From positions 1,953,649 to 2,017,648 of the forward strand of contig OZ244053.1 of the NCBI GenBank assembly GCA_965215235.1: a DNA stretch of 64,000 nucleotides, read 5' to 3'. Below are positions 17,620 to 59,972 of this stretch, in pieces. Within the stretch, counting starts at the first letter, position 1, and every line of letters begins with the position of its first letter. Below the pieces are notes generated by a model. It made no database searches, was not told the origin of the DNA, and worked only from the letters and a program-made list of their open reading frames with translations. The position numbers were made by a program, and so were the translations under genes. The DNA comes from Terriglobia bacterium (GTDB lineage: Bacteria > Acidobacteriota > Terriglobia > Versatilivoradales > Versatilivoraceae).

Positions 17620-19852
17620 CTAGGGAACTCGGAGCATGGTCTTTCCAAGGCTCACGTTACCCGCGGCGTCGTAGACACGCAAAGCCACCACGTGCTCGCC
17701 ATTCTTGAGAGGCTCGGTGGTGACTTGAAACTCTTCCGACTTCGAATCGATAATGCCATCGCTCGAGAAGATGGCTTTCCATTCACCCCCATCCGTTGAG
17801 AAGTCGGCCTTGCGAAGACTGGACACCGTGTCCGTCACTCGGAACTGTAGCGCTGCCGTTGCCCCGTGGACCTCGCTGGACAAAACTTCGACCACCGGTG
17901 GTGTGTTGTCAATGATGAAGGGAGCACTGATCAACTCCCCGGACTTGGCGCTGGAGGACGGGTTGGAAGGTGAATCACTGGCCAGAATTTTAATCAGATA
18001 AGACCCATCGGGAAGGCCTCCGGATTGCAAAGTGAAGTTAAGGCGCGGATGATCCCGCACCAGTGGCTTCCAGTTCGACTCGCTCTCTCCCCGATAATCA
18101 ATAGAGAAGGCTAATTCATCGCCGTTGGGATCTTCGGCCTTCCAAGTAAAGGACTGCGATCCCTTTTGGAAGGCGCGACGTGAGCGATTGGAAGCGCCGG
18201 GGCGCTTGGGGATGGCCTTGGCCGCTCCAGAGATTTCTGCAGCTTCCCGGTCGGCAGGAGAGACCTGGGATGGATTGGAGGAAAAATCGGCACCCCGCAG
18301 AAAGGCCACTCCCTGAGGCAGAATCTTGATGGACTTGACCTCTGGAGCCAGGTTCTGCTGGAGATAGGGAATGACCACTCGACTCAGTTGAGGGGAGACT
18401 TGTGTGGTGGTCTCCAACACCACTTTGTACTGGATATACCGGGCTCCGGGACTGTCGATTTTTTCCCCTCCCGATCGAGTGTAAGCCTTTGACCAATCGC
18501 TCCAGGTTCGGTCGGGCCGTTGAGTATTGCCACTGCGAGTATAGAGTTTCAGGCTGGCGCCCTTGGGAACTTTCGCCTGCCAACTCACACGGCCCCCAGC
18601 GAGAGACAACTTTCGAGTCTCTAACCTCAGACTCGAAGCTACCGCGACGATTGAGCTGGTTCTTGAGCCGATAGATCCTGGCAAGATTGCTGGTGCAGGC
18701 TACCAGCCCGTTATCGGCTGGAATCAAGCGGGTGGTCTGTTCTTCAGTGGTCTCGATCAGAAGGGTCAATTCTCCCTTGCTGTTGAGGGAATAAATCTTG
18801 CCTTTGTCTCCGCTGGAGAAAATGACGTCCCCCCCGTTATCAACGTGCAGCCCGTAAGCAATCTCTCTGTTCGAAGACCAAAGCGTTTCCACCGAGCGGT
18901 CCTGACGAATCCGGTGCAAGCGACTTTTCAATTTACCGAGGATCGGCGGAACGGAGCTTGGAACCGGCGGGTGGGAACGGGGTTTGACGGCAGTTTCTCT
19001 CTGTCTTACCCTGGATAATGACAAACCCGCCGAAACGGCGTCCGGCGGGGGCAAGGCGGCGGCCGTCTCCTCAACATCGGGCGCCATGCGTCCGGCCTCC
19101 CCGTTGACCGCAATGAAGTAGATCTCTCCCTCAGCGTTGACCTGGATATCGTGAACCTCATTCATTCCGGTGTCGAACAGCACGAAGGCTTTGCCGTCAG
19201 GGGCAATCCGGTAGACGTAGCCTCTGGGGTCGCTGCCCGCCACCAAGTGATTTTGTGAATCGACAGCCAGGCAAATCACGTTGGTCTGCCCCGTATCGTA
19301 GAGTTCTTCCCCTTCACCCTGCTGGCTGACCTTGTAGATCTTTCCCTTGCCTCCGGTAGCCACGTAAAGGACTCCGTCGGGGCCGAAAACCAGGTCCCAA
19401 ATAAATTTATCTACCGGATCAAAAAAAACCGAGACCTTCCCCGCGGGCGACACTTTATAAACCTTGCCGTTGGGAGAGGTGGCCGCATACAGGTTCTGTT
19501 GGCCGTCGAGCGCCAGCGCTAGCACATCCAACTCTGTCGCGTCGAAAAAGAGTGAGGACTTGCCGGAGTCGTCAACTCTAAAAACCTTGCCGTCGTGCCC
19601 TGTAGCCACGTAAAGGTTGCGGTTACCATCAAAGACCGCAGACCAGATGAGAGCTTGATCCGAATCCAGGACCGAGTCAAATTGGCGGGCCAGAGCCAGA
19701 GTGCCATCCTCCCGAAGGGAGAGTCCCCGAAGATTCCCTTTGGAAAAATCGCTGAAGGAGGAGGTCGTCCAAAACTCCGGGCTGACGGCCAGCATTTTCA
19801 AGCAGAGCAGCGGCATGACCCACAGGTAAGCCATCAAGGTTTTCCGTATCAT
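17620..19852 (-). CDS. Secreted beta-propeller (YVTN/NHL-like) protein with a C-terminal beta-sandwich region; the reading frame is interrupted at a C5 run near 18593-18597
   Basis: The two minus ORFs 18116..19912 and 17620..18684 together form one protein. It has a signal peptide (MIRKTLMAYLWVMPLLCLKMLAVS) and repeated NLYVATGHDGKVFRV / LYVATGGKGKIYKV blades. After the frame change it continues as ...RVSWQAKVPKGASLKLYTRSG.... Both pieces look genuinely coding. Confidence 0.6.
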
Positions 19853-19974
19853 TCCGACTCCGTCTTCGCTCTGCGGGAAACTAAAGAATTTTCTGGAAAC
19901 AGTAAGAGGCAATCCAAGGAAACGCCACCGCTGGATTGCTCACCTGAATGCTGCGCCATGGGAATGCCCTTCAC

Positions 19975-22813: not shown

Positions 22814-22904
22814 CGCCTCGGGAGCGCGGGCATCCTGCCTGAATTTTTCCTGGAAGTCTCCGTGAAATTCCCGGGAACGCAGGGGGCTCTCCCGCCTGTC
22901 GAGA

Positions 22905-23340
22905 GCAGCCTGAAAAAAAAGAAAGAGAAGTTCCCATTGCCGAGTACGAGGTTAAAGCCTCCATCCGGACCTCGAATCTCTGGCTCAAGAAGAACAGAGG
23001 CTCCGCTGGCTCCGCGAGATCGTCGTCCGGCTGCCCGAGGTCTATCGCCAAGTCCTGGAACTGCGCTACGGCCGGGACCTTTCTCCCGACAAGACCGCCG
23101 CACAACTCCACATCTCCCGCACGAACGTCAACACCCGCCTGAACCGCGCCGCCGCCCTGGTGAGGCGACGTCTGGAAGCCCACCTTCAACGAAAACACTT
23201 CGTCCCCAAGGCAAAGGGAAGCCTCTCATAGAGCAGGCTGAGGACGGGTCCCGCAGCGGACCGGGAGCAGCCTGAAAAAAAGTTGTGACCGCGAGCCGTT
23301 TCAAGACTCTATATAGGTAGAGGGTGATGCATTCCTCATC
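22905..23340. repeat. Direct repeat copy 1 (~93% identical to 24575-25010): 3' third of the ECF sigma gene, its downstream spacer and the leader of the next gene
   Basis: Base-by-base alignment: aaagagaagttcccattgccgagtac...ctatataggtagagggtgatgcattcctcatcgcaaccgtag versus the same string at 24575-25010. The left junction gagcagcctgaaaaaaaa|gaaagagaag re-uses a cctgAAAAAAA motif that also follows each copy. Confidence 0.7.
22956..23232 (+). pseudogene. Orphan 3' fragment of an ECF sigma factor gene (region 4 only, no start codon)
   Basis: In-frame translation SLAQEEQRLRWLREIVVRLPEVYRQVLELRYGRDLSPDKTAAQLHISRTNVNTRLNRAAALVRRRLEAHLQ is a sigma-70 region 4. A TAA at 22953-22955 precedes it and there is no region 2. 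Confidence 0.6.
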
Positions 23341-23504
23341 GCAACCGTAGCGTGTCTGGCTGTGTGGACCAGGAATACGTTTTCCAGCAGGGTTCTCTTG
23401 GGAGAAATTTGGGAGTATCATCACAACGATGGCAGGGAAAAATACGGACCACCTCAAAAGCTGAAAGTTCGGTAGTTCCCGCTCAGTGAAAGGGGCAAGG
23501 GATC

Positions 23505-24137
23505 ATGAGAATAAGACCAACTTTTCCATGGATTTGTCTTGGGCTTGGCTTGGCGGCATTCGGCGCCGCCTATGAGGTATTGGGACAAGAACCGAATCGA
23601 GATGCCCAGGCTGAAGAAGCCCTGAAGGGTCTCATTCACCAGTTGCCCCATGCCGGACATCCAGACGATTTCCTTTTCCAGCTTTTGGGTAAAATGCGTT
23701 ATGCAAGTGGAAAGGGCGCTTCTGTTTGCATGTTCGTCCGCAAACAATCCTACCTGGAAATGACAAGCCTGCTCGACCGTCAAGGCGTCGTTACGGAACG
23801 TGGGTGGGGCGACATATCGTTCGAGGCCAAGCCGGGGTGGAAAGTCAGCCAGGCCAGAGTATCGGGAACCATGTCCCGAATAGACTCCCGGACCATGGGG
23901 ACGAATGAGGGTAAAGCCACTACGGCGCTCATCAAGGACAGGTTTTCAGAAGGCCAAAAAGCCTATCCGCACGCATACAACGGACTCGTAGGCGCCGGCA
24001 AGATAGAAGTCGATTGCCAGGCGATGTCTCCGGAGATGGTCAAGAAGCATGGTCCTGCTCCGCGTACGTACCGATGGTACTGGTCGTTGTTCCGGCGCAC
24101 GGATCCCAACAGCCCAAACCCCTCCGCGAAGCAATAG
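23505..24137 (+). CDS. Hypothetical secreted protein (cargo 1 downstream of the sigma fragment)
   Basis: Signal peptide MRIRPTFPWICLGLGLAAFGAAYEVLGQEP, homologous to the N-terminus of the ankyrin protein at 25023. The rest has no recognisable family. Confidence 0.5.
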   Translation: MRIRPTFPWICLGLGLAAFGAAYEVLGQEPNRDAQAEEALKGLIHQLPHAGHPDDFLFQLLGKMRYASGKGASVCMFVRKQSYLEMTSLLDRQGVVTERGWGDISFEAKPGWKVSQARVSGTMSRIDSRTMGTNEGKATTALIKDRFSEGQKAYPHAYNGLVGAGKIEVDCQAMSPEMVKKHGPAPRTYRWYWSLFRRTDPNSPNPSAKQ

Positions 24138-24255
24138 CGCCAGGATTTGAACGGGTTTCAAGCCGTTTGGCTTCAGGGGCGCGAAGGCGGTTGAAGTCGG
24201 CAAAGGTGACAGACTGATAGGGTGATCGCAAATCCATGGAGGTCCCGGGATCAAA

Positions 24256-24887
24256 ATGTGTCCTCGAAAATCACGCAAATCGTCTGAATGTTTTCCCATC
24301 CTCCGTGACTCCGGGCTCGAACGAGCCGCCGTACCCTGTCCCCTCCTGGAAGGGAAAGAGGAAGCCTGGGTCGCCTGTTGCTCCAAGCGCTTCTTCCCTC
24401 TGGCCCGGCGCATCGCCGGGGAGGACGACCTGGCCCAAGAAGTCCTTCAGGAAAGTTGGGCCAAGATCCTGAAGGCCATCCATGCCTATCGCGGCGGTTC
24501 CCCCGCCTGCGCCTGGGTGCACGCCATTGTCTCCCACAGCGCCATAAAAGCCGGCAAAGCGCGCTCCAAAGCCAGAGAAAGAGAAGTTCCCATTGCCGAG
24601 TACAAGGTCAAAGCCCTCCATCCGGCCCCGAATCTCTGGCTCAAGAAGAACAGAGGCTCCGCTGGCTCCGCGAAATCGTCGTCCGGCTGCCCGAGATCTA
24701 CCGCCAAGTCCTGGAACTGCGCTACGGCCGGGACCTTTCTCCCGACGAGACCGCCGAACAACTTCACATCTCCCGCACGAACGTCAACACCCGCCTGCAC
24801 CGCGCCGCCACCCTGGTGAGGCGCCATCTGGAAGCCCGCCTTCAACGAAAACACTTCGTCCCAAAGACAAAGGGAAGCCTCCCATAG
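24256..24887 (+). CDS. ECF (sigma-70 family) RNA polymerase sigma factor; region 2 and region 4 are in different frames, needing a -1 shift near 24612-24630
   Basis: Frame 1 carries region 2 (...DDLAQEVLQESWAKILKAIHAYRGG...). Frame 0 carries region 4 (ESLAQEEQRLRWLREIVVRLPEIYRQVLELRYGRDLSPDETAEQLHISRTNVNTRLHRAATLVRR). The join lies in aaagCCCtccatccgGCCCCgaat. Confidence 0.7.
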
Positions 24888-25010
24888 AGCAGGCTGAGGA
24901 CGGCTCTCGCAGTGAATCGGGAGTCTCCCGAAAAAAAGTTGTGACCGAGAGCCGTTTCGAGAGTCTATATAGGTAGAGGGCGATGAATTCCTCATCGCAA
25001 TCGTGAAGAA
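24575..25010. repeat. Direct repeat copy 2 (partner of 22905-23340)
   Basis: See copy 1. Copy 2 is embedded in the full-length sigma gene and lacks ~150 bp that copy 1 has before its downstream gene. Confidence 0.7.
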
Positions 25011-25022
25011 AGGAGAAAGACG

Positions 25023-25388
25023 ATGAAAAGGAATCTGGGTTTTCCACTTTTCTGCCTGGTGTTCGGGCTGGTGGTGTTTGGTGTGTCCTATACACTGCTG
25101 GGCCAAGGTCCGGGTAGTGGACCCGGAGACTTGACCGGCAATGAGGAAGTGGGGCCGGTGGCTGTTGTGAGTGAATTGTTTGAAGTGATTGAGGGTGGGG
25201 ACGTTGCAGCTTTGGAAGACTTGTTGCGGAGTGGTGCTGATCCGAATGAGGCAAATGATTACGGGCATACTGCCTTGCATTGGGCTATTGCGACGGATTC
25301 TCCTGTCGTCTACGGTCAGGTTAGCGCACTTCTAAATGCTGGGGCGAATCCAAACTTGGCAGACAAAAAGGGACTGACACCCCTGTAA
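25023..25388 (+). CDS. Secreted ankyrin-repeat protein, apparently truncated after ~1.5 repeats (cargo 2)
   Basis: Signal peptide MKRNLGFPLFCLVFGLVVFGVSYTLLGQGP, then DYGHTALHWAIATDSPVVYGQVSALLNAGANPNLADKKGLTPL followed by a stop. A complete ANK protein would continue. GC content falls right after this point. Confidence 0.55.
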   Translation: MKRNLGFPLFCLVFGLVVFGVSYTLLGQGPGSGPGDLTGNEEVGPVAVVSELFEVIEGGDVAALEDLLRSGADPNEANDYGHTALHWAIATDSPVVYGQVSALLNAGANPNLADKKGLTPL

Positions 25389-25399
25389 TTGATGTAACC

Positions 25400-25804
25400 A
25401 TGAAAAAGAAGCGGAAAAACCCGTGGCTTGAACCGTGGATTGAATGGAAACCCAGATGGTGCCCCATATTGTACGTGGCAGGCATCTTGTTCGGTTTATT
25501 CTTCATTGTCGCCAAGAGATCCCCCTTTGAGGTGCTTTTTCCGCGTCTTTGGAAGAATCTGCTGATTGCTATTGCTGATGCTCATGCTGATGATCACTGG
25601 CTGGTTCTCTGGGTGGACTATTGGGGTTCCCAGTGGTACCACATTCCGTTGCTTGCTTCGGTGATTGGGACCTTGGGCAGGTGGCTGTTTAAATGGCGCC
25701 ACGCTGATGATTGGCGGCTGTGTGTGGGTGAGGTGCTGATGTATTCTGTCGGTCTCTTCGCTGTCACATATTTGGTTCAAGTGTTGGTCAAGTGGCTTTA
25801 TTAA
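25400..25804 (+). CDS. Hypothetical small membrane protein (3 predicted TM helices) in a ~50% GC insert
   Basis: MKKKRKNPWLEPWIEWKPRWCPILYVAGILFGLFFIVAK... with hydrophobic helices. Starts 12 nt after the ankyrin stop. Lower GC than the flanks. Confidence 0.4.
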   Translation: MKKKRKNPWLEPWIEWKPRWCPILYVAGILFGLFFIVAKRSPFEVLFPRLWKNLLIAIADAHADDHWLVLWVDYWGSQWYHIPLLASVIGTLGRWLFKWRHADDWRLCVGEVLMYSVGLFAVTYLVQVLVKWLY

Positions 25805-25985
25805 GGCGTACAGTAACGGTATTCCCCTGACAGCGCCCTTCCCATGCCTTCCCCTTCTATCTCTCACTTTGGAGTCGGACCTGAGTTCGGGGGAAGGTCA
25901 GACTTTCCATGATATGAGTCCGTCAAAGAAGGGCCCCCCCAGGAAAAGAGGCGAAGCGGCAACGTCAAAGCCCCGGTTTCCGCCC

Positions 25986-27626: not shown

Positions 27627-27663
27627 GGTGATTCGGGAAGGACGATGCTGGCTGGACGTTCGG

Positions 27664-31814: not shown

Positions 31815-32204
31815 GAGGCCAACCCGAGTACCCATCCATTCGGACGGGCCCCCTGCACTCACCGAAAGATCACATTGAAATGGCATGACGAACCCTGCCC
31901 GCCATCGAAGGGTTCATAAGGTCACCTTGTGGATTCTTGATCCAGGCACTTTGGGGCGCCCCAGGTCACTCCCAACCCGAGCCCTATGCGCCCCGATCAT
32001 TGAAGTAGTGAAAGATCGCATCGACTTCCTGGAAAACGTCCCCATTTCAGTGAATTCCGCTCTTCGGTGTTGATTCGTGGGCTCCAAAGTCAGGACTACC
32101 TTGAGCATTGGTTATGCCTGTTCCGTTCGCCCATCCTCACGCTGCTTCGTCGAGCGAGGATCGAGAAGTGTGGGATGCAAATGCCGAAGCAGGATGAAAC
32201 CGCG

Positions 32205-33200
32205 CTAGACAACTCCAGCCGCACGGAGTTGCCGATGGATCTGGTGCGCCTTTGAGTTCTGCGATTGCAGATAGAACCAGGCAGGAAATCGCGCCCGAGA
32301 GAGCGCGTAGCCGAAACTTTCACAAAAAACCTTCAGATAGGGCCTGTTTTTAAGAGCTCCTTCCATGACCGCCCTGATGCCCTGATCCAGTTTGTCAATA
32401 CCGGTACTGATACCTTTGTGGGGCTTGGCCAACCTGGGATCAAAAATCAATTCCACCCACCGCGTCATCTCATTCGACAAAACGTCCAGTGTCAGATCCT
32501 GCGGCACCAGATAAGCCTTGCGCTGTTGAATGTTGTTGAAAAAATCACGAAACGTTGTTCCTTGAGCCAGGGTATAAGCCTTGCCCACGTCTCCCATATG
32601 AGTGTCCGTGGTGGCTACCACGCCTTTGCCAAATTTCTCGGCAAGGACCATCGCCAAGGCATTCCTTTGCTGCACGCGGTGCATGTTGTATTCGACCACG
32701 GGGAATTGTTCAATCAGCCATGGAATGGCGGAATAGTTGGGTTCCTCGTGAGGTTCAAACCAGAAGGGATGATTATAGACATGGGGAAGATCGTTGGATC
32801 GCAAATAGGACAGAAAAGACTCCACGCAAGCCTCGTCTTGAGCGATCCGCTCCAGTTCGTGGAAATGTCTCCGATTCAGAAGGTAAACGTTTACGTGGAT
32901 GGTATGCCTGACCTGAGGGTCCTTGATCTTGATCTCGACTCCCGGCACCAGATCTTCCCGGTCCCACCCGATCAGGCCATAGGCATCCATCGTGTCGTAG
33001 TCCGTGAAGGTGACAAAGCGCATTCCAAGTCTCCTGGCTTTTTGGTAGAGGGCCTCGGGATGAAGCCAGGGTGCTTTGACGACGTCGTGGGAGCAGTTTG
33101 TATGGACATGAAGATCAGCAGATCCCCAGCCGCGTTCAGTGAATTGACGTGCTTCAGCAGTTGAGCAGATGTTTCCAACCGGGTGTTTTTTGCGCCTCAT
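32205..33200 (-). CDS. PHP-domain (polymerase/histidinol-phosphatase-like) metal-dependent phosphoesterase
   Basis: ADLHVHTNCSHD...HPF... His-rich PHP motifs. GGGAGG RBS before the ATG at 33200. Its start overlaps the upstream GT4 stop (ATGA). Confidence 0.7.
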   Translation of the reverse strand: MRRKKHPVGNICSTAEARQFTERGWGSADLHVHTNCSHDVVKAPWLHPEALYQKARRLGMRFVTFTDYDTMDAYGLIGWDREDLVPGVEIKIKDPQVRHTIHVNVYLLNRRHFHELERIAQDEACVESFLSYLRSNDLPHVYNHPFWFEPHEEPNYSAIPWLIEQFPVVEYNMHRVQQRNALAMVLAEKFGKGVVATTDTHMGDVGKAYTLAQGTTFRDFFNNIQQRKAYLVPQDLTLDVLSNEMTRWVELIFDPRLAKPHKGISTGIDKLDQGIRAVMEGALKNRPYLKVFCESFGYALSRARFPAWFYLQSQNSKAHQIHRQLRAAGVV

Positions 33201-34412
33201 TGTACCTCCCTCGTTTGCATTTTTGTGAGACCCACCTGTTGCTGAGATTGAGTGGACCGACTGCAACGGACCATTTCCTGATAATCCGCAAACAACCTTT
33301 TGAATACCGCCTGCCAAGTCCGGCTGACCGCCGCTTTTCTTGCCTTGTCAGCCATGATGCGACGATCTTCCGGGTGCGACACCAGCCAGTCCAACCGTTG
33401 TGCAAACTCACCGGGGATCCGCGTGATGAAACCATTCTCTCCTTCGAGCACCAACTCTTTGGGTCCCATCTGATTGGTGACGATGGCGGGCAGGCCCGAT
33501 GCCATCGCTTCCAGAACCACATTGCCGAAAGTGTCCGCTGTCGAAGGAAAAACAAAGACATCGGCCGACGCGTACGCCTCAGCCAAGACCCGCCCGGTGA
33601 GGAACCCTTCAAACCGGGCATTCCTCAAAGCCGCCTGCATCCGCTTGCGGTAAGGTCCATCACCCACCACCTTGAGTTGCACGTCGGTGCGCTCACGGAA
33701 AAGTTCAACCAACCGGTCGAGATTCTTTTGAGACTCGGCCCACATACAGTGCGGTCGGGATCCTGGATGGAACCCGGTACTTCGGATGAAACTTCTCGGC
33801 GTCCACGCCTCTCGAGAACAATTCTACTTCCCGGACCAGTCTCTTTTGCAACTCCACCCGAGTACATTCCGAAGAAGCCAGTAACCATTGGCATTTGCCG
33901 TAGAACCACTTCAGAAACCTCCAAATGACCGTTTGGCAACGAGCTCTCAGCCACCGTTGGGGCAGGCCCAGTTTCCCCAAGAAGCATTCTACACGAGGGC
34001 GCGCAAACTCAGGCAGCGCGGTATGGTGGCAGCCGACCACAGGTACAGGTAGCTTTAGGCGGGCGGCCGCAGCCAGGACATTGAGCCCCATGGAACCCGG
34101 AGTAGCGGCTTGAATCAGATCATAGTCTCCCCGTTGACACTGCCGGAGGATGTCCAGCCGGACGGGAAGCAGGTCGAATTCCATACCGGTGTAGTAACGA
34201 ATTGGAACATGCGGCTCGAATCGGAGTATCCTGACCGATCCTGTTTCTTCAACCTCGAATCGGCCATCTCCGTAAGTGTAGATGTCCAAAGAGAAACTGG
34301 AGTCCCGGCAGTATGCCGCCAGGTAATGGTAGGTGTTGGAGACCCTATTGATCTGGTCGAACGAATCGGTGAACACGGCAATTTTCATGGATTCCTCCCA
34401 AGGACTTGCCAC
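33197..34412 (-). CDS. GT4-family glycosyltransferase; frame interrupted at a T4/A4 run (~33712-33717)
   Basis: ORF 33705..34412 is the GT4 N-domain. ORF 33197..33745 is the Glycos_transf_1 C-domain (...FVFPSTADTFGNVVLEAMASGLPAIV...). Reading ...ALYVGRVSKE / KNLDRLVELF... across the join needs one extra A in tcAAAAgaatc. Confidence 0.75.
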
Positions 34413-34927
34413 TCATGTCATCGAAATCCTTCCGCAGATTCCAATTGGTCGTTGTTTCAGATTCCAGAGATTGAGTGTTCCGCAACATACAACCCTGTAT
34501 ATAGACATAGGCTGTAAACTCCTGGTTAAGTCTTGATTAAGTTGGTGTGTATTCTTCAGAGGGCAATCCGACGAGTGTGGCGGCCGGCGGGCAAACCGGC
34601 CAAGCTGCCTGCGCCCGGCCTTCGGCGGGGGTGAGAACACGTAGTACCGGCTGCAAGACAGCCTACGACTTGACTCGGGCGATGGAGCAGGCCGGCCGGG
34701 TCAAGGTCGACCGGCTGTCGCCGGTGGCGTGGAACACCGCTTGGGGATAAGGCCAAGCTATCTGCCTCATTCAAAACCATTTGCCTGGTTGGTTTGGATG
34801 AGTGTCTCCCTATACCCCTTCCGAACGTCATGACGGCACGAGGTGTTCAATTTTAATTGTCACTGTTCGATTAGATGGCTATAATAACAAAAATGGCATA
34901 AATATACTTTATGTCAAAATAAAGATT

Positions 34928-35209: not shown

Positions 35210-35591
35210 AACCATCCTTGACGCATCGGCCATCCTGGCTGTGCTGTTCCGAGAGCCCGGCGCCGAGGTGATCGAGGCCCATTATGAAGAAGCAATTATT
35301 TCGTCAGTGAATCTCTCCGAGGTTGCCGCGAAATTGTCTGACTGCGGTATGACGAGTGTCGAGGTTCAGGAGCTACTCTCGGGGCTCGGTCTAGAGGTTC
35401 GCGCGTTTGACGAGTCATTGGCCTTCGCGGCTGGCGCTCTGCGGGAAGCTACCCGATCGAGTGGCCTGTCCCTTGGTGATCGGGCTTGTCTCGCACTCGG
35501 CATTGCTGAAGCGATTCCTGCTGTCACTGTGGACAGGAACTGGGCTGATATCTCCGAAAAAATCGGTGTCGAGGTCGTGGTCGCGAGATAA
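35202..35591 (+). CDS. vapC: VapC PIN-domain toxin
   Basis: MSKTILDASAILAVLFREPGAE...VNLSEVAAKL...DRACLALG... carries the PIN acidic residues (D6, E, D). Confidence 0.8.
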   Translation: MSKTILDASAILAVLFREPGAEVIEAHYEEAIISSVNLSEVAAKLSDCGMTSVEVQELLSGLGLEVRAFDESLAFAAGALREATRSSGLSLGDRACLALGIAEAIPAVTVDRNWADISEKIGVEVVVAR

Positions 35592-35948
35592 GGCAGGCCG
35601 CGGTCAACACTTGGAGCGTCGCCCAGTTCAACGTCGTGTCGGCCCCCGCTCTTTGTGCTCTTCGCAGTCCAGATCACCAACCTGAGGCGGACCACCGAGG
35701 CTGTTTCCAGTGGAGAGCCGTGATGGCAGTGGTTCACCATTCTGACCGCGCCTTGGCGCCATCCCTGCAGCGGAAATAGTTGGCGTCAATCAAACAACGG
35801 GCGTGGCATGCCAAAGCATGGGCTGCTTTCTTGCTTCCACCTCTTGACAAGCACTTGCAAAGTACTTACAGAGGTAGGAAGTAGCCAGCCCACCACCCGG
35901 TTCCCCACCATAATGCCGGATTGTGACGCGACTTTCTTTGTGCACATT

Positions 35949-43825: not shown

Positions 43826-44254
43826 TTTGGATCCTCCCGGGCTGACTTGCCCCCCACCAACAGCGTCACCACGTCAGATCCTCGAATTCACCCTGGCGCC
43901 GTTTCGGGTTTCAGGTCAGATCTCCTCTCGTCCAGGCCAAGTTTCCAAAGAGTATTCTTGACAAGAAGCATAACTTAATCGCCGGTCGGATGGCTGGAGT
44001 ATTCCCATTTTTGCCTGGCGCCGGTTTGTCCACCACTGGGTCGCCCTCTCCCGTCGCAGCTTAACCGGGCTGACTACGACCGGGCGGAGCTCAGAGCACC
44101 GATCCCGGAGACAGTCGAGGACAAGGGGTGCAGCCGGCTCAAGACCAGGAGTTGGCGGACCTGAATCCCGGCGACTGCGACGCGATGATCCGGGTGCACA
44201 CCGCTTGACTAAGCGTACGCCAAGAGGTACGCCAGCTATTTCGAAGGTGGCCCC

Positions 44255-44497
44255 GTGACCACGCTGAACGCGACAGAAGCTCATTCCAAACTGTACAAAC
44301 TGATTGACGAGGCGGCCCAATCCCATGGTCGGGTTGTGATTACGGGAAGACGCGGCAACGCAGTCCTCATTGCCGAAGAAGACTGGAACGCAATCAATGA
44401 AACGCTATACCTGCTTTCGATTCCAAGAATGCGCAAGTCTATACGCGAAGGAATGGAATCCAGTCTCGAAAATTGCGAAAAGGAACTGGACTGGTGA
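44255..44497 (+). CDS. yefM: YefM/Phd-family antitoxin
   Basis: VTTLNATEAHSKLYKLIDEAAQSHGRVVITGRRGNAVLIAEEDWNAINETLYLLSIPRMRKSIREGMES... is the YefM fold. GTG start with a GAAGGTGG RBS. Confidence 0.8.
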   Translation: MTTLNATEAHSKLYKLIDEAAQSHGRVVITGRRGNAVLIAEEDWNAINETLYLLSIPRMRKSIREGMESSLENCEKELDW

Positions 44498-44758
44498 CGC
44501 GGGAGCGGTATTTCACCCGATAGGTAAGGAAAGACGCGAGAAAACTGGTTGTTTCCGGATTGAAGAAAACAGCTCACGAATGACTCGATATCATTCGAGA
44601 TAATCCATGTCAGAACCTACTACCTCATGAAGAACTGGTGGGCGATTTGGCCTGCGCATACTCCCGGCGAATCAACATACGACACCGCCTGGTTTACCAG
44701 GTTCTTGAAGGAGGAAAGACCGGTAAAGATCCTACGCCTGTGGACCCGTTACGAGTAG
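44494..44758 (+). pseudogene. yoeB: Decayed YoeB/Txe-family toxin gene (fragments in three frames)
   Basis: Directly after yefM, frame a reads ...FHPIGKERREKTGCFRIEEN.... Frame b reads ...YSRRINIRHRLVYQVLEGG (compare YoeB WSRRITEEHRLVY). Frame c ends ...VKILRLWTRYE* (compare IAACRYHY*). There is no intact N-terminus. Confidence 0.55.
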
Positions 44759-44810
44759 TTTCACTCGAGGTCCCGGGCGACATCGGTCAGGTCAGGTTGA
44801 AGCTCGGGAG

Positions 44811-45884: not shown

Positions 45885-46218
45885 CACGGAATTCCTCCCC
45901 TGCCAAAAGACGGTTACCCGCAACGGTCCTTTTTCCAGCGACGGAGGCTACCGGTCGGATGCCCTCGGAAAAAAAGGGGGGAGCGGATCAGTAAATGGAT
46001 AGTAGGCGTCTGCTATTCGATCCGCGGCTCTGCGGAACCGTACCGACAAGACAAGGGCAAAGTACTGGTATTCGCCATCCACCTCAAGCGGAGAGCCCAT
46101 CACCCATGGAAAAGTTATAGGGCCTCAAACAAAGGAAGGGGCGGCGCCAATTCTTTCGGCCGGCTGGCGCAAACGCTACTCGGCTTTCCTGGATTCCCGC
46201 CGGAGTTCCTGGGGGAAG

Positions 46219-47658
46219 CTATCGCCGAGGGGCCTGTCCTGTCACCTCACCATCGGCCGCGTTCTCCATGTACTCCTGCACTTCAGTTTGGGTTTCCTCC
46301 TCGGTGACGGCTTTAGCGCTGAGTGAAATCCTGCGATTGCCAAGGTCCATGCCCAACATCTTGACAACGATTGCCTCTCCCGGCTTGTAGTTTGACACAG
46401 AGGCCCTCCCGGGTATGTCCGGAAGTTCAGAAATGTGTACCAGTCCTTCTACCCCCTCAGCCAACTCGACAAACAATCCAAAATCGGCCGTACGGGTCAC
46501 TATGCCTTTAAGAATCGCATCGACTTCGGTGCTTCGGGCGAAGGCCTCCCAGGGATGCTCGGTAACCTGCTTCAGGCTCATCGACATCTTTCGATTGCCG
46601 GGGTCGAGCCTCGTCACCACGATTTCGATGACATCGTTAACCTTCAATACCTGGTCTGCGTGGGACAATCGCCGAGTCCATGAAATTTCCGAGATGGGCA
46701 ACAATCCCTGGATGCCAGACTCGAGTTCCACGAAAGCTCCAAAATGCTCCAGCTTTTTGACGGTTCCGGTGATCACGGCGCCCTCTGGGTAAAGCTCAGC
46801 GGCATTGAGCCACGGGTCGTCCTCGGCTTTGCGATACCCCAAAGAGATCCGGCACCGCTCGCGATCGTATTTAAGAACTGCCACCTCAATTTTGTCACCG
46901 ACCTTAAAAAGCTGTGAGGGATGTTTAATTCGTCTCCACGACATCTCGGAAATATGAAGCAGACCCTCGACGCCACCGATGTCCACAAAGACTCCGTACT
47001 CGAGAATCCTCCGGATCACCCCTGGCAAGCGCTGTCCGACGGCCAAAGTGGCCAATGTTTCCTTGCGTCTCTTTGCCCGGGCCTCATTGAGTAGCGCTCG
47101 TCGCGACAGAATCAACTTCCCATTGGGCAGGTCATGCTGCATGACCTTGAGTGTCAGGGTCTGACCCAAATAGGGCCTGAGATCCTCCACGTAGGATTCA
47201 TCGATTTGGGAGGCCGGGATAAAGCCCCGCATCCCAACGTCCGCCAGCAGACCGCCCTTGACGACCTCGACGACCTTTCCCTCGAGGTTCTTGCCACTGT
47301 CGATCGATTCCTGCAGCGCCGCGAGTTGCTTGGCGCGGAGAGCCTTGCGGAAGGAGACCCTGAGCTGGTTGTCGGAATCGGCCGAACCCTCTAACATGAC
47401 GGATATGGAATCGCCCATTCCAAACATCAGCTTTCCATCGGGACCCTTAATTTCATCTTTTTGCAGGGTGCCTTCTGACCGACCACCGGCATCCACCAAG
47501 ATTTCATTGTCGTAGATGCCCACGATCTTACCTTCTACGACCTGCCCCGGTTTCAGTTGTTGACGAGATTTTTCATACTTCGCGAACAGAGTGGCAAAAT
47601 CTTCCTCACTGCCGTTATGGGTTTCGTTATTTTCGTCCAATTGATCTTTGTTCTCCAT
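46219..47658 (-). CDS. rpsA: 30S ribosomal protein S1
   Basis: Repeated S1 domains (GQVVEGKIVGI..., GKVVEVVKGGLLADV..., GAVITGTVKKLEHFGAFVEL..., LKGIVTRTADFGLFVEL...). GGAG RBS before the ATG at 47658. Confidence 0.9.
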   Translation of the reverse strand: MENKDQLDENNETHNGSEEDFATLFAKYEKSRQQLKPGQVVEGKIVGIYDNEILVDAGGRSEGTLQKDEIKGPDGKLMFGMGDSISVMLEGSADSDNQLRVSFRKALRAKQLAALQESIDSGKNLEGKVVEVVKGGLLADVGMRGFIPASQIDESYVEDLRPYLGQTLTLKVMQHDLPNGKLILSRRALLNEARAKRRKETLATLAVGQRLPGVIRRILEYGVFVDIGGVEGLLHISEMSWRRIKHPSQLFKVGDKIEVAVLKYDRERCRISLGYRKAEDDPWLNAAELYPEGAVITGTVKKLEHFGAFVELESGIQGLLPISEISWTRRLSHADQVLKVNDVIEIVVTRLDPGNRKMSMSLKQVTEHPWEAFARSTEVDAILKGIVTRTADFGLFVELAEGVEGLVHISELPDIPGRASVSNYKPGEAIVVKMLGMDLGNRRISLSAKAVTEEETQTEVQEYMENAADGEVTGQAPRR

Positions 47659-47920
47659 GGAAACTCCGCCGAATTGAAACTTCAGAGGCAAATTATAGCA
47701 GATGCACAGTGCTTTACCAGTGCAATCGAAAAGAGCCTCCGCCGTCTGGAGTTGCAGCGTTGAAGGCAATTTCAGACACATAAGAGCTACGAGGACGGAT
47801 CGCTTGTGGCAGTGAGAGGCCCAGACTCAAGGTAGGATCCAAGTGCGGAGCCTGGACAGATTGGGGGGAGCAAGGCTCGACAGACTTTCCAACCATCGCT
47901 CCCCCGGCAGGGATGAACGA

Positions 47921-50099: not shown

Positions 50100-50468
50100 A
50101 TGGAAAGACTCTTCTCCGTCGCAGAGGCTAACGCGCTGCTCCCCCGGCTCAGGCAATTGTTGAGTCGAGTTCAGTCCGAGAAACAACGGTTAGTCGCCAT
50201 GAAACCAACCGTGGAAGGCGCTCAGGAGGGTCATATGCGTGACTGGGGAACACCTCAGGGTCCCGCCTACATCAGTATCCTGGAAAACTTTCAGGAGAGC
50301 CTCCGCAACATCGAGGAGTTAGGAGTCCTGGTCAAGGATTTCGATGCAGGGCCTCTGTGACTTTCCCCACAAACGCGATGGCCGCGTGGTTTATCTCTGC
50401 TGGAAACTCGACGAAGAAGAAATTGCCTGGTGGCATGACCTCAACGCCGGTTTCGCCGGCCGACAGCC
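50100..50468 (+). CDS. DUF2203-like small protein; frame interrupted at gggCCtctg (~50350)
   Basis: Frame 1 reads [18 protein letters not shown]...[13 protein letters not shown] +1 shift gives [40 protein letters not shown]. Removing one C restores a single ORF. Confidence 0.5.
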
Positions 50469-50491
50469 TCTTTGACCCCCATCCACCAAGA

Positions 50492-52700: not shown

Positions 52701-52730
52701 GCCATCCAGATCCTCTCAGCGGTGCTGCAC

Positions 52731-54447
52731 CTAATAGGGTTCGAGAGCACCATCCTCTTTCAGTCGATATCTTCGATTTACCGCCACATCTTCAAATCTC
52801 TGGAGTTTTCCATCGGTCCAACGAACGTTGAGGATATTGATCTTTTTGGCTGCCCCCAGACCAAAATGGAGCCTCAAATCGTGGGTAGACTGATAGCTCG
52901 AACCGCCCCTGACCTCCCGCACCAACCGGTTTCCCTCTATTTGGACCGTAGCCCGAACTCCAATCGCCCTGCGGTTGGTCCGTACTCCTTCCAAACGCAG
53001 ATTCAGCCAGTGGCCGGTCTCACTACCGACCTCGTTGCGCAGCAGCCAGGGTTTGCCATCCAGGTTGTTGACAGCTACGTCCATATCTCCATCATTGTCA
53101 AAGTCGGCATAGGCCACCCCCCGGCTGGACCGGGGTTTCACCCGATCGAGGCCAGCCGAAACCTCACGAAACCGCCCCTCACCCAGGTTCTGAAACATCT
53201 GGGCGTGCTGATAGTAGGTGGTGTTCAGACTGAACTGATCGATCTGGGGGAAAAGGTGGCCATTGGCCACGAAGAGATCTTCCCAGCCATCATTGTCAAA
53301 GTCTACAAACCCCACTCCCCAGCCCAGAAACTTCCAACTGGGGAAGGCAATTTTGGCCGAGTAGGTCACATCTCGGAAACTTCCGTCACCCAGGTTTCGA
53401 TAGAGCGTGTTGTATTCATCGGAAAAATTACTTAGAAAAAGATCCAGAAAGCCATCGTGATCATAGTCGCCGAATTCTACCCCCATGCTCCCCTGGGCAA
53501 CGCCGTCATCGCTATAAGCCGCCCCCGAATGGGCGCCGACCTCCTCGAAAGCTCCGTCTCCTTGATTGCGAAAGAGGAAATTGGGCGTCTGATCGTTGGC
53601 CACGTAAATATCCGAATCCCCATCATTATCATAGTCGCCCCAGACGACTCCCAACCCATAGCAGGGTGTGACCTTGGCAATCCCAGCTTTCTCACTCACA
53701 TCAGTGAACGTCCCATCTCCGTTATTGTGATAGAGGACATCCGAATCCGTCGCCAGCCCCAGGGGACCGCAATGCACGACCATGGTGCGATAGAGGCACT
53801 CCATGGGAGGAGGCTTGCGGTGATCGAACCGAACGGTGCTGGTTACGTAGAGGTCCAGCCAACCGTCATGGTCATAGTCTGCAAATGCCGCGCTCATATT
53901 CCAGCGCCTGTCGCCCACACCGGACCGCACGGTGACATCGGTGAAAGTACCGTCCCCGTTATTGCGGTAAAGCGTGTTGGAGCCATAGTTGCAAAGATAT
54001 AAATCATCCCAGCCGTCGTTGTTATAGTCGCCGACCGCAACACCCATACCCCAGCTCCGGTCGCCCACTCCCGCCTTCGCGGTCACGTCGGTAAAGGTGC
54101 CGTCGCCATTGTTACGATAGAGGGCATTAGATACACTGCTTTTGCCTTGCAGCAACTCCGGCCAGCGCCCGCCGTTGACCAAGTAGAGGTCAGGCCAATC
54201 GTCTCGGTTGTAGTCCAGCCATGCGATGCCGCTACCCATGGCCTCCAGAATGTAGCGCTTCTCTTTGCTGCCGCTAACGTGCCGGAAACGCAGACCGGCC
54301 CTCTCCGGCGACATTCACGAAAGTAACTCCCATCGAAGGCAAAGGCTGTGCCGTGCCAACCATCCGATGGTTTGTTTCTGGCCACGCCGACCCGAAAACG
54401 AACAAGAACCCCACTAAAAAGCCCACCACCGTCTTGTTGATCTGCAT
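52731..54447 (-). CDS. CRTAC1-family (ASPIC/UnbV, FG-GAP/VCBS repeat) secreted protein; frame interrupted at a G-run (~54296-54300)
   Basis: Repeated DYNNDGWDDLYL / NTLYRNNGDGTFTDVT modules and a C-terminal UnbV_ASPIC domain. The true N-terminus is a signal peptide (MQINKTVVGFLVGFLFVFGSAWP...VTFVNVAGE) in a different frame. Dropping one G in gagGGccgg joins them. Confidence 0.8.
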
Positions 54448-54659
54448 CAGGTTCGTTTGTTTGGTTGTGCCGGCGCCGAGACGCCCGCAATCATAATCAA
54501 GTCGACAAAAAGCAGTAGCCGGGCATGAGCACCAGCCAAGAGGTCACCCCTTCTTGCTGGGCGCTTCGCCAAAGAGGACACGTCAGATATCGTTCGTTAG
54601 AAGTGACTCGGAAAGGGCTTCAAGAATACTTAGGTTGTGTTGATATTTGTGATTCAAGA

Positions 54660-54896: not shown

Positions 54897-55375
54897 TCAC
54901 TTTATGACAAAATGGCCCCCCAACAGGTCATTCTGAGGAGCCCTTCGCCTTGGCTCAGGAACGAAGAATCTAAAGCCTACGCCTCAAACAACCTACCATT
55001 TTAGATGCTTCACTCCGCTTCGCTGCGTTCAGAATGACATAAGATGAAATGTCAACACTGCCTAATCTCCTACCCTTTTTTACTGACCTCAACCCAGCTT
55101 CTTGGGGATTTCCGGCCTTCTTTCCTGGGTTTTTGCGGAAGCCATTGTTAATCGCATGTGGAGCTATTTTTTAGCCGAGGGATTGTTGATCCCGTGGATG
55201 ACTTCGGAGCGTAGCCGAACCCTGTTTAGCCGAACCAACGTACCTTCGCCGTCGAGCCGCTAACCAATGACGTGGACAAGGCGCGCTGGTGGTATTGATG
55301 TACAATGACGGCGAGTACAGTTGCTGAGACGCCTTAGAGCCAAGCCATTCTCGTCCCTCAAGAGAGGAAAAGCAA

Positions 55376-57066
55376 TGCCAGAAACAATCGAAGCCAAAGA
55401 ACTGGAACTGAATGGCATTTTCAGCGATGCGTATCTTTTCAAGATACCTGAGTATCCGCGTCCATATGCTTGGGCAACTGAACAGGTTATGAATTATTGG
55501 ATGACCTAATCCATGCGATGGGCAAGGCCAAGAATATAAAGGAGATGCCACACTACTTCCTTGGAAGCATCGTCATTATCAGAGACTCTACCTCACTGTC
55601 GTACATAGTTGACGGACAACAGCGCATTACAACTCTCACTATATTCTGTTCTCTATATTCTGTATTCTGTTTTGTGCGTTGCGTGAACTTTCCAACGAGA
55701 GAGATCGGATCACGCTTGATAGGTATGTTCGTGAAAATAGCAATCCTTTCGCCGCTATAGAAGGGCGTTTTAGGCTCAGCGTTCGGGAGCGTGATAGAAG
55801 CTTCTTTCAAGGCAAAGTGCAGGAGATGGGTAAGTTGCCTGACTTTCTCAACCATCCTCCCGCGAACTTGCCTGACAGCCGGCAGCGGATGTTTGAAAAT
55901 GCCAAATGGCTATGGAAAAAATCTCTCGAAACTTGACGAAGAACAACGTAACAGACTTACGAGTTTTCTTGTTCAGCGTTGCTATCTTGTTGTCGTTCCA
56001 GCATCTGACCAGAGTTCCGCTTACCGCATTTTCGCTGTTATGAATGACAGGGGACTTGATTTGTCCCCTACAGACATTCTGAAAGCAGAGATAGTCGGAG
56101 CGATGGACGAGAGCATCCGCTCTCAATATACGGAAATAGGACAAGACATCGAGGAGAAGCTTGGACGCGATAATTTCAGGAACCTCTTTGCCCATATACG
56201 CATGATTTACATGAAAAACAAGATGGGCGTGGAACTCTACAAGAAGAGTTCAAAGAGGGGGTATTAAAGAAATAGAAGGGAAGGAGTTCATTGACGATGT
56301 TCTCATCCCTTTTTCCAATGCCTATAAATAGTAACCAGTACAGGTTACAAAAGCGTGGACGGCGGCGATAAAGTCAATCAGTACCTGGAACACTTGAGAA
56401 GGTTTGACAACTCTGATTGGATTCCACCTGCGATGGCGTTCTTCAATTGCAAGAAAATGACACGGATAAACTCTTCCGGTTTGTTCGTGATCTGAAACGA
56501 CTGGGCCTATGGAATGTTTATCAGGCGGGCGAATATTGACGACCGCATAAATCGGCATGCAGACGTCCTTCGCGCGATAGAGAAAGGCTGAGGAACTTTT
56601 TGGGGATACGGCGCCACTTCAGCTTTCGCCCCAGGAGAAAACGGAGATTCTGCAAAAATTGGAGGGCCCCATTTCGACGAGAGTAGCCAAGCCACTCCTG
56701 TTGCGACTCGACAGTCTATTGGCCGATGCTGGAGCGGCTCATGAGCATAAGATAATCACTGTTGAGCATGTGCGCCGGCGGAATCCAAAAGAGGATTTGG
56801 AATGGCTCATGGGGTTCCCTGATGAAGAAGAAAGAGCGCAATGGACACATAAATTTGCCAATCCTGTGTTGCTGTCCCGCTATAAGAATGCGAGTGCACA
56901 AAACTTCGACTTTGACCAAAAGAAGAAAAAATATTTCCAGGGAAAAAGTTCGCCTTTCGCCCTCACTTCGCGAGTATTGAATGAAGCGGAGTGGGATCCG
57001 AAAGTGCTGGAGCGACGACAGCGTGAGCTGATTGATGAATTGAAGAAAGAATGGCGTTTGGGCTGA
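55376..57066 (+). pseudogene. GmrSD-like type IV restriction endonuclease gene (DUF262 + DUF1524) broken into at least five frame segments
   Basis: Segments read, in order: MPETIEAKELELNGIFSDAYLFKIPEYPRPYAWATEQV; DDLIHAMG...YIVDGQQRITTLTIF (DGQQR motif); LRELSNERDRITLDRYV...; ...FAVMNDRGLDLSPTDILKAEI...; and ...TVEHVRRRNPKED...ANPVLLSRYKNASAQNFDF... (DUF1524 HNH-like). One join needs an extra T in aattaTTgg. The region is ~45% GC. Confidence 0.6.
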
Positions 57067-57130
57067 CTGCATCGCGACAGGAGCGGAGTGAAAGGTCTGC
57101 TCGGGCCGATGCCACCCCACTTCTCAGACC

Positions 57131-59972
57131 ATGGAAATTTTAACGTGGCTCGCTAGAAAGTGGCCCCATTGTCTCCTGCTGACGGCTCTTCGCCTCACGG
57201 CGTGGGGGCAGGAAGACCCGCGTCAAGTCGTGGCTCAAAACTTCGAAAAGGCTCTGGCAGCGCGAGAAGAGGGTGAGCTTGAAATCGCGGAGAGTTACTA
57301 TCGGCTCAACTTAGGTACTGCTCTCGATCAACTCGGCGACATTCACTTCCGTTTGGGCGAGTTCGAGGTGGCTGAGCGCGCTTACACGGAAGCGCTGCGA
57401 GAGGTTCCCTTTTTTGAACCGCTGCTGGTCGACCTTGGCTATACCCGACTTTTTCAAGGCCGCTACCGGGAAGGCGTCCATGCGGTGGAATCTTTGCTCG
57501 ATCTGGCCCCTTCTTCAGCCAATATCGCCAGTGAGTCTCAGGACTTGGGCAAACTGAAGGAAACCCTCCCTCTGGCTCCTCTCCAAGCTCCGGCCCGCCA
57601 TTTGTTGGCCAAGCTCTTCTTGATGACTCAACGGGACAAGGAAGCAACGATCGAGTTAGAAAAGGTTCGGACACTCGGTCCCGGCGATTCGGATGTCCTG
57701 CTCACCCTGGCAGCGGCCTATTTGAAGCAACAGCAAGAGGCCCCAGCTCGTGCGATTTTCGAAAAGATGCAGAGCTCCCTGGGAGATTCCTACCTGCTCA
57801 GGCGACGCATGGGACGAGCCTACCAAGAGGCCGGCTACTGGAAGGAGGCCGTGGAAGAACTCCAACGAGCGCGTCAGCTTGCCCCGAAGTTTGTGCCAAT
57901 CCATTATGATCTGGGGTTGACCTATCTGTTGCAAGGCGAGATCGAGGAAGGGGTGACTGCCCTCAGAGCAGCCCTGGAGTTAAATCCTCGGCAGGCCACC
58001 ATCTGCTTTCTCCTTGGTTTTTGCTATGAGATCTTGGGCGCCAGAGCCAAAGCCTTTCTATTCTTGAACAACGCCCTCGTCATTGATCCCGACCAACCAT
58101 TGGCTCATCTTTTCCTGGGTCAACTCCGCTACCAGTTGAGGGACTTCCAGAAGGCGACCCCACGGCTCAGGAGGGCCGTCTCGTTGCTGGGTCAGACTGA
58201 CGAATCAAGGTCCGACCCGGACCGTGCCGCTTTGCAACTGACGGCTGCAGCGCACTATCTCTACGGGCAGAGTCTGCTGATGAGTTCTCCCCGATCATCA
58301 AACGAAGGGGCGCGTCATCTGGACACTGCCAAAAGTTTGATGGGCAACTCCAAAGAAAAAATCTCTCGGGTTGAGGGAGTTTCTGTTCCAACAGCCACGC
58401 AGTTCGACTTGAAGACCCTTCGAAGAGTCATTCAGGAGACTCGTACCCCCTTGGTTCTCCATCGACGCCGTCTCAGCCGGGAAGAGAGTGGGAGAGCCAA
58501 GAGACTGAGCAATGCCTACCGTAGTCTGACGTCTCGGGCCTATCGGTCTCTGGCTCTCGTCAACCTGAGGCGAGGAGATTTTCCAGCTGCGGGCCGGCAA
58601 TTCGAACTGGCCATCGCCTGGGATAATTCCCTGCCCGACCTCGAGCAGCATTTGGCCAGGACCCGTCTGATGGCATCCGAGAAACGGGGCGCTAAAGCCT
58701 TCGTCTTCTTTCTGGTCTCTGCCGCTCAATCCCAGGCCGGCTTGCAACGAGCCCGCTCCGCCTATCTCAACGGCGAGTACCTTTTGGCAGAAGAGATGCT
58801 TAAACGATCGGTTGCCTCCCAACCTGCGGACGTCCAGGCTCGCAGTCTCCTGGGCACCGTTTTGGCTGGGCAGCATCGGTTTGAGGAAGCTGAGAACGCC
58901 CTGACCGAGTGCCTCAAATTGGACCCGCAACACGCAGAGTCTTATTTGAATCTGTCAACCGTTTATCTGAGTCAAGGTCGCTTCGAAGAGGCCCTCGAAA
59001 TACTTCACAAGGGACGAAAAGCTCTGCCGCTGCCGGGAGAGCATCGGCTTTCACTGCGCCTAGCCAGGCTCTTTGGCAAGCTGAGACGCTCCAAGGAGGT
59101 GCTCGAATACCTCGCGCAGGTCCCAACGCAAGGGGCGCCCCGCAGCTACTTCGAGATCTTGGCTGACTTGCACGCCTCTTCCGGCCGTTACGCCAACGCT
59201 GCCGAGAGCTACCTTCAATACCTGCGAGGGCATCCGCAATCCGCCACTACGCTATACCAGCTTTCCAGGCTCGCCCGCCGGCAACGCAAAACCACCGAGG
59301 CCTTGCAATTTGCCACTCGGGCCAGAAAACTGGCTCCATATTCTCTCCAAATACTCTTTGAAACTGCTTTTGCCAGTCTGGGTCGGGGGCTTTCAGACCC
59401 AGCCATTTTGGTGCTGAAGCGTCTACGACTCATGGAGCCTGATAATCCCGAGTACTTATTCTTTCTCGGTCAGGCCCCTCAGCCGGCGTCGTGACAGCGA
59501 TGAGCTCAAGGAGGCGATTAAATGTTACCAGCGTTTCGTCGAGCTGAAACCACGCTCCTCCCAAGGACACGGCTTCTTGGGCTACTGCGCCTTTTTAACC
59601 AAGGATTATGGATTGGCGCAGAAGCACTTGGCCCTGAGTTTGAAACTGGATGCCGATCAGACCGCCCCCTACTTCTATCAGGGAATGATTGCTTACGAGC
59701 TGGGAGAAGACGCCAAAGCCCGCAAGTTGTTCCATCGGGTTTTGGAGAAACAGCCCAATCACGGGATGGCTCGACTGGGAATGGGGAGACTCCTTCTGAG
59801 AAGCCGCGAGTACAGCAGGGCTTTAGCTGAGCTTGAAACGGCAGCCGCTTTGCTCCCGAATCGTTCTGAAATCTACTATCAGCTCAGCTTGACTTACCGG
59901 CAACTGGGAGAGATGGAGAAGTTCCGCCAAGCGCTGCGACGCTATGAGGAATTGAAGCGTCAAGGTAGTTGA
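57131..59972 (+). CDS. Large TPR-repeat protein (~946 aa); frame interrupted at a C4 run (~59475)
   Basis: ORF 57131..59494 is all TPR. The frame-0 continuation ...DSDELKEAIKCYQRFVELKPRSSQGHGFLGYCAFLTKDYGLAQKHLALSL... through 59972 is also TPR. Removing one C in caggCCCCtcag joins them (LGQALSRRRDSDEL). Confidence 0.7.

Follow-up and report, generated by a model that had tools for sequence, protein, structure and literature searches.

Are the frameshifts that interrupt several genes in a stretch of an acidobacterial genome mutations, or are they errors of the assembled sequence? The stretch in question (hereafter, the window) comprises 64,000 nucleotides from a Terriglobia bacterium (GenBank assembly GCA_965215235.1, contig OZ244053.1, positions 1,953,649 to 2,017,648 of the forward strand). 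An earlier note on this DNA listed six genes, encoding a beta-propeller protein, an ECF sigma factor, a GT4 glycosyltransferase, a DUF2203 protein, a CRTAC1-family protein and a large TPR protein, each of which was said to be well conserved and to require one base added or removed in a short homopolymer, and attributed all these breaks to assembly error rather than biology. The results presented here are best compatible with two classes of damage, namely insertions of a single G or C that are tied to the motif GGCC and appear to be consensus errors, and ordinary gene decay elsewhere in the window; we put the probability of this combined explanation at about 0.6. The attribution to assembly error thus seems to hold for four of these six sites (propeller, DUF2203, CRTAC1 and TPR) and also for rpsA, whereas the ECF and GT4 genes and a set of pseudogenes with multiple lesions do not fit it.

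The halves of the broken genes were located by means of Pfam domains identified in each reading frame, and a custom protein-to-DNA aligner that permits frame changes was applied to each gene, its best homologue serving as the protein sequence. The alignments contain exactly one frame change per gene in 6 of the 6 listed genes, and the domain matches agree, so that all six are indeed split between frames at or near the places reported previously. The list is nevertheless incomplete, given that the gene for ribosomal protein S1 (rpsA), a GmrSD-type restriction enzyme gene, a GH106-like hydrolase gene and a remnant of an ECF gene are broken as well. Two other approaches yielded less: a codon-usage Viterbi segmentation of the window recovered only four sites and left much of the sequence unassigned, and a scan in which open reading frames (ORFs) were joined by one-base edits produced an overwhelming number of false positives from adjacent genes. 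The comparison set consists of the relatives L001-L009 and L091, which are ENA contigs (e.g., ctg836680_125x_c, ctg246091_45x_rc and ctg735522_8x_l). Most of these show 83-90% nucleotide identity to the window over the shared parts; L009 and L091 are more distant (about 72-81%). Those homologues of the window genes that are annotated indicate Acidobacteriota.

The genes and sites with a single extra G or C are as follows:
17620-19912, minus strand: beta-propeller/Ig-like protein gene, split by one added base; the orthologue in relatives is unbroken (743 amino acids)
18591-18597: propeller lesion, GGCCCCC, a +1 insertion (C5 versus C4 in the relative)
50100-50475, plus strand: DUF2203 gene, unbroken (124 amino acids) in four relatives
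50349-50353: DUF2203 lesion, GGGCC, a +1 insertion (GGG versus GG in the relatives)
52731-54450, minus strand: CRTAC1-family (FG-GAP/ASPIC-UnbV) gene; the orthologue is unbroken (576 amino acids), with 90.7% amino acid identity
54297-54301: CRTAC1 lesion, GGCCC (GGGCC on the gene strand), a +1 insertion (one G/C more than in relative L008)
57131-59972, plus strand: large TPR protein gene, the final ~165 amino acids of which are shifted to the next frame
59473-59478: TPR lesion, GGCCCC, a +1 insertion (C4 versus C3 in relative L091)
46178-47781, minus strand: rpsA, with the lesion GGGGCC at 46229-46234, near the 3' end, a +1 insertion relative to four relatives
9182-9187: intergenic GGGGCC, a run that exceeds the relative's by one G

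In the propeller gene, the gene strand reads GGGGG where the relative has GGGG, and this is the sole indel in the DNA alignment across 2.3 kb. The DUF2203 alignment pairs GCAGGGCC in the window with GC-CGGCC in four relative contigs; positions 1-82 of the Pfam profile match the first ORF, and the second ORF has no match. For the CRTAC1 gene, the window has GAGGGCCGG and the relative GAGG-CCGG, and for the TPR gene, which encodes TPR repeats on either side of the break, the window has CAGGCCCCTC and the relative CAAGCCC-TC. The rpsA gene, absent from the previous list, reads CAGGCCCTCGGC in four relatives and CAGGCCCCTCGG in the window. As a result, the C-terminal 17 amino acids of the window product are swapped for PRR and a stop, the ancestral tail (LGDSFPQELR...KAE-stop) remaining readable in the next frame; the protein of the relatives is unbroken, at 493 amino acids. 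Thus, the comparison with orthologues that had been proposed as a check finds the GGCC-linked propeller, DUF2203, CRTAC1 and rpsA genes uninterrupted, at the lengths given above. At the propeller, DUF2203, CRTAC1 and TPR sites, the added base is missing from close relatives with about 77-90% nucleotide identity. A further +1 change is located at GGGCC in positions 56503-07, inside the GmrSD pseudogene. A C6 run at 10940-10945 coincides with a frame change of a weakly conserved 74-amino-acid ORF compared to a relative; this ORF is possibly not a genuine gene.

All these insertions share their sequence context. A GGCC junction is found in 187 of the 1,910 G/C runs of at least 3 bases in the window (9.8%), and such runs hold 5 of the 5 insertions in conserved genes (p = 9e-6 against this background; the motif was spotted post hoc, so that the value has to be discounted, but it stays small even after a hundred-fold penalty). 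The effect has a direction, too: among the one-nucleotide indels relative to the other contigs, GGCC-junction runs account for 5 of the 24 in which the window has the extra base and for none of the 18 in which it lacks one. Altogether, there are 7 +1 events among 175 runs of the form G3+CC or GGC3+ and 444 GGCC sites. The rate per site is 5/147 in genes and 1/7 in old pseudogenes, and the signature is present in this genome and not in the relatives. Lesions of the GGCC type make up 5 of 7 in genes with a single lesion versus 1 of 12 in pseudogenes with many (Fisher p = 0.0095). The edges of 500-nucleotide polishing windows, as used by the assembler metaMDBG, were considered as a cause of the insertions and rejected because the spacings between the events are not multiples of 500.

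The sequence downstream of the insertions looks like that of functional genes. Past the break, the ratio of nonsynonymous to synonymous substitution rates (dN/dS) is 0.108 in the propeller gene (324 codons) and 0.118 in the CRTAC1 gene (519 codons), compared to 0.045 to 0.224 in fourteen intact control genes, so that the relaxed selection expected of a genuine pseudogene is not seen in the GGCC-linked genes (downstream dN/dS of 0.11-0.12). The +1 process is therefore bound to a motif, confined to one genome, insensitive to selection and practically without age, a combination for which consensus error is the simplest reading. Judging from these sequence comparisons, the lesions in the propeller, DUF2203, CRTAC1, TPR and rpsA genes, together with the GGCC-linked extra bases in the GmrSD pseudogene and in intergenic DNA, are most likely motif-specific consensus errors and not mutations. 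Under this explanation, base calling of the reads of this organism probably went wrong at GGCC, for which a chemical modification of the motif, either methylation or phosphorothioation, is a plausible cause; a few percent of the G3+CC or GGC3+ sites would then have acquired one base too many in the consensus. The second class of damage would be ordinary decay, chiefly in horizontally acquired or accessory DNA.

Two side observations are compatible with modified GGCC, as circumstantial signs and not as a test: McrBC is present in three relatives and missing from the window, and GmrSD, the only other modification-dependent nuclease of the window, is dead. In Escherichia coli, McrBC restricts DNA containing GGm5CC. 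The mcrBC genes of the three relatives are located between the Ldh_2 and cysteine desulfurase genes, where the window has none. In the corresponding region (10413-12553 of the window and 2650-7232 of L001), the three relatives possess a PemK toxin gene together with those for McrC and McrB, and the window contains about 2 kb instead, which carry an ORF for a HigB-like toxin (11192-11695). The McrB proteins themselves are only 79-81% identical between strains that are otherwise 99% identical. No gene for a GGCC-modifying enzyme was identified within the window.

The two remaining genes of the previous list carry lesions of a different type:
24256-24887, plus strand: ECF sigma factor gene, with region 2 and region 4 in separate frames and one base missing within 24613-24639
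33197-34412, minus strand: GT4 glycosyltransferase gene, split between the N- and C-terminal domains; the source annotation has only a 227-amino-acid fragment
33723-33731, minus strand: GT4 lesion, TC[AAAAG]AATCTC on the minus strand, where homologues need S-x-E-K-N-L

In the ECF gene, sigma-70 region 2 and region 4 are assigned by Pfam to different frames. The range of the lesion was set by P0139, an unbroken paralogue in this genome with 78% identity and a linker of equal length; the range includes GGCCCC at 24624-24629, the exact position within it being ambiguous. A missing base is thus confirmed, and its assignment to a homopolymer is ambiguous as well; a biological origin is preferred, but the site could be assigned to either class of damage. 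The Glyco_transf_4 and Glycos_transf_1 domains of the GT4 protein likewise fall in different frames. The earlier note placed this break at 33712-33717, where the sequence is ACCGGT; the T4 run occupies positions 33726-33729. In every homologue, with identities from 49% to 69%, the sequence at this point is GRVS-x-E-KNL. Deletion of one A mends the frame at the cost of two conserved residues, whereas restoration of a second AAAAG unit fits, so that the lesion is probably, on this sequence evidence, the loss of one unit (5 nucleotides) of an AAAAG-AAAAG tandem repeat. A one-nucleotide homopolymer change is ruled out by the same two residues, which are present in every homologue. Thus, a change of one base within a mononucleotide run accounts for the propeller, DUF2203, CRTAC1, TPR and rpsA lesions, all of them insertions, but not for GT4, and is ambiguous for ECF. 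The description of all six genes as well conserved also requires qualification because, locally, the ECF and GT4 genes are located in islands that are missing from the nearest relatives. The GT4 orthologue of L009 contains an in-frame TAG.

Several other genes in the window are damaged beyond a single lesion:
22920-23348, plus strand: orphan 3' half of an ECF gene, a 430-bp direct repeat of 24576-25004 (92% identity) without the 5' half
55375-57064, plus strand: GmrSD-type (DUF262/DUF1524) type IV restriction enzyme pseudogene, with nine frameshifts, no in-frame stop and a G+C fraction of about 0.51
61880-64000, plus strand: GH106-like glycosyl hydrolase pseudogene that extends out of the window, with stops at 61958, 62099, 62192 and 62895 and frameshifts near 62609 and 63057

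The GH106-like gene is colinear with a haloarchaeal plasmid protein from Halomontanus rarus (WP_276255871.1, 34% identity), and its stops fall at well-aligned or conserved positions, e.g., a TGA opposite a tryptophan of the homologue. These in-frame stops disprove the possibility that the window is free of nonsense codons. For GmrSD, the same nine frame changes are obtained with three homologues and correspond to six missing and three extra bases, and characteristic motifs are altered (QR to PR, and EHVLPQNP to EHVRRRNP). Accordingly, several lesions including nonsense codons, the mark of a genuine pseudogene, are found in the GH106-like gene and in part in GmrSD, which has no stops. Between the orphan and the full ECF copy there are two one-nucleotide indels, 10 nucleotides apart; a single frameshift common to both copies was dropped because the alignment better fits two separate one-nucleotide indels. 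The genome contains a third copy at another location (P0141), which ends at the same residue (REVPIAE) as the orphan half, and this shared end point suggests a recombination or integration breakpoint within the ECF gene. The orphan half opens a 3.1-kb island (22852-25984) that is missing from the relatives. Thus, the class of decayed genes includes the GH106-like hydrolase, GmrSD and the truncated ECF copy; the ECF sigma factor gene (-1) and the GT4 gene only probably belong to it.

The alternative closest to the earlier note is that homopolymer-length errors of the generic kind, in a long-read assembly that was unpolished or of low coverage, explain every frameshift. It has in its favor that all the events are small indels, that 4 of the 6 listed sites are +1 changes within a mononucleotide run, that the orthologues are unbroken, and that low-coverage sister contigs (L091 at 3x, L009 at 5x) contain occasional frameshifts. 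These sister-contig cases are single-base changes at about position 58 of L091 (58886 of the window) and at about 5800-5900 of L009, in the contexts GAG-AAG and AAGGAA, neither of which is at GGCC. However, if run length were the cause, the longest runs should fail first, and 37 homopolymers of 6-8 bases, including C7 and A8 in the propeller gene itself, lie inside intact frames, whereas the runs that gained a base were originally only 2-4 bases long and abut GGCC. Motif independence would be expected as well, in contrast to the GGCC flank found at every insertion (p ~1e-5); the GT4 lesion is no homopolymer change, and the nonsense codons of the GH106-like gene are impossible to obtain through indel errors. 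The pattern is therefore not the one typical of uncorrected or low-coverage long reads, as had been proposed, and this explanation appears unlikely. Programmed ribosomal frameshifting, transcriptional slippage or phase variation might be invoked to restore the genes, and the sites do contain short runs, but nothing more; the orthologues use a single frame, no common slippery heptamer is present across the sites, and the affected genes are unrelated. The runs are 3-5 bases long, far below known slippage or contingency tracts, given that phase-variable contingency loci contain a long simple-sequence tract, usually of at least 7. In agreement with the earlier note, which also doubted programmed frameshifting, we consider recoding of any of these kinds to be exceedingly improbable.

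The opposite alternative is that every frameshift is real, i.e., that gene decay is under way in this genome and that the +1 changes at GG/CC are recent mutations caused by a GGCC-specific lesion. Such a lesion could stem from blunt GG^CC cuts by a restriction enzyme, with one base added on rejoining, or from breakage of strands at phosphorothioated GpsGCC. This explanation would account for the restriction of the signature to this genome and agrees with the presence, within the same 64 kb, of true pseudogenes of differing ages, with the apparent lack of indels in the sister assemblies and with the loss or death of modification-dependent restriction (McrBC missing from the window and GmrSD shattered). 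On the other side, the downstream sequence shows no relaxation, and about 3% of the available sites are struck, whether in a conserved gene, a pseudogene or intergenic DNA, with rpsA among the affected genes. Extrapolated to 5.2 Mb, this would amount to several hundred fresh knock-outs, including those of essential genes, and the rate of GGCC +1 changes would have to be far above the substitution rate. To our knowledge, there is no natural mutational signature of GGCC +1 insertions. We therefore deem it doubtful that all the frameshifts are real. In a specific form of this scenario, the +1 changes at GG/CC would be scars of breakage at restricted or phosphorothioated GGCC, with error-prone end joining adding one nucleotide; this, too, is a speculative possibility to which we give little credence.

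Several observations weigh against consensus error at GGCC combined with decay elsewhere, the explanation favored here. An excess of GGCC-specific substitutions in comparison with the relatives was looked for and none was found: 132 GGCC sites are lost and 82 gained, a ratio that is common to other four-base motifs composed of G and C only and follows from the difference in GC content (56.4% vs 57.9%). The published errors at GGCC are mainly G-to-A and affect about 0.03-0.07% of the sites, compared to +1 insertions at about 1.6% here. The labels of the relatives' contigs (l/c/rc) match the style of metaMDBG 0.3; metaMDBG has been applied mostly to HiFi reads, with nanopore reads also tried in its paper, and performs racon-like polishing in 500-nucleotide windows. 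Strain pairs among the relatives, at coverage from 13x to 125x, differ by 70-200 substitutions and zero indels over 9.6-13.6 kb, also where coverage is only 13-23x. Hence these assemblies are indel-clean, and the GGCC insertions need a special cause if the source contig was made likewise. Finally, the existence of real pseudogenes in this genome raises the prior for some of the single-lesion cases being real as well.

For annotation, these results imply that at least 5 apparent pseudogenes, including that of ribosomal protein S1, are probably intact genes and that several others are truly dead, so that accepting all the pseudogene calls and dismissing all of them would both be wrong. With respect to quality control, homopolymer-aware checks would miss a +1 error that depends on GGCC and not on run length, and such an error could flag an unrecognised DNA modification. 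If the extra bases were real, they would constitute an unusual motif-specific mutational signature and, should they be scars of breakage, a genome-wide signature of self-restriction or modification damage in an uncultured lineage of Acidobacteriota.

The surroundings of these genes differ considerably between the window and its relatives. The relatives that span the flanks (L001-L007) lack the window segments 22852-25984, 31837-34871 and 35589-44764 and everything past 51423; the latter region is covered in part by L008 and in part by L091. Within a 9-kb island that is not present in the relatives, a gene for a PBP1C-type penicillin-binding protein (785 amino acids) is adjacent to one for a bacterial alpha-2-macroglobulin (1840 amino acids; 35949-43825, minus strand, for the pair), both intact. 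In the GTDB representative collection, the best match to the conserved deacetylase-like (HDAC-like) protein of the window has at most 49% amino acid identity. When JGI metagenomes were scanned for exact patterns spanning the DUF2203 and CRTAC1 sites (numbers 4 and 5 of the previous list), no match was obtained, which indicates that there is no independent same-species assembly in that collection. A 2.9-kb Logan short-read contig encodes proteins 95-96% identical to MnmA and the deacetylase-like protein of the window (13856-16149), so that a nearer relative exists in public short-read data. This contig is closer to the window than any long contig found, and it spans no frameshift site. On the L009 contig (5x; 1-9000 and 15757-18681), there are genes for dnd-associated DNA sulfur modification, for an SMC-like ATPase and for a helicase that is split. 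A bAvd/reverse transcriptase pair on the same contig adjoins a gene of the FGE-sulfatase fold, a locus that looks like a diversity-generating retroelement.

Errors confined to GGCC have been described in other bacteria. Nanopore-only assemblies of Salmonella Kentucky retain errors at GGCC sites in association with a dnd system by which GpsG in GGCC is phosphorothioated (bioRxiv 10.64898/2026.03.20.713089), and in the nanopore-only assemblies of Pseudomonas aeruginosa PA068 and PA188, 46 of 70,459 and 25 of 83,098 GGCC sites, respectively, are wrong (PMC12345217). In both cases, the errors persist despite higher depth (bioRxiv 10.64898/2026.03.20.713089; PMC12345217). The insertions in the window resemble these errors in being concentrated on GGCC, in affecting a minority of the sites, and in being strain-specific and absent from relatives. 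They differ in kind, the published errors being mostly substitutions that yield GACC, and in frequency, which is about 25-50 times lower per site in the published cases. By analogy, the published errors are a precedent for organism-specific consensus error bound to GGCC rather than a detailed match. With generic long-read homopolymer errors, the window events share a length change of one base in a mononucleotide run and the apparent frameshift that follows from it, but they are independent of run length, leave the longest runs correct and show a strict flanking motif. Genuine bacterial pseudogenes are matched by the GH106-like gene, GmrSD and the ECF remnant, which have multiple lesions and lost conserved residues and are found in DNA of low G+C content, as is the case for GmrSD, or outside the regions shared with the relatives. 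In contrast, each of the five GGCC-linked genes has one lesion, a normal downstream dN/dS and unbroken orthologues.

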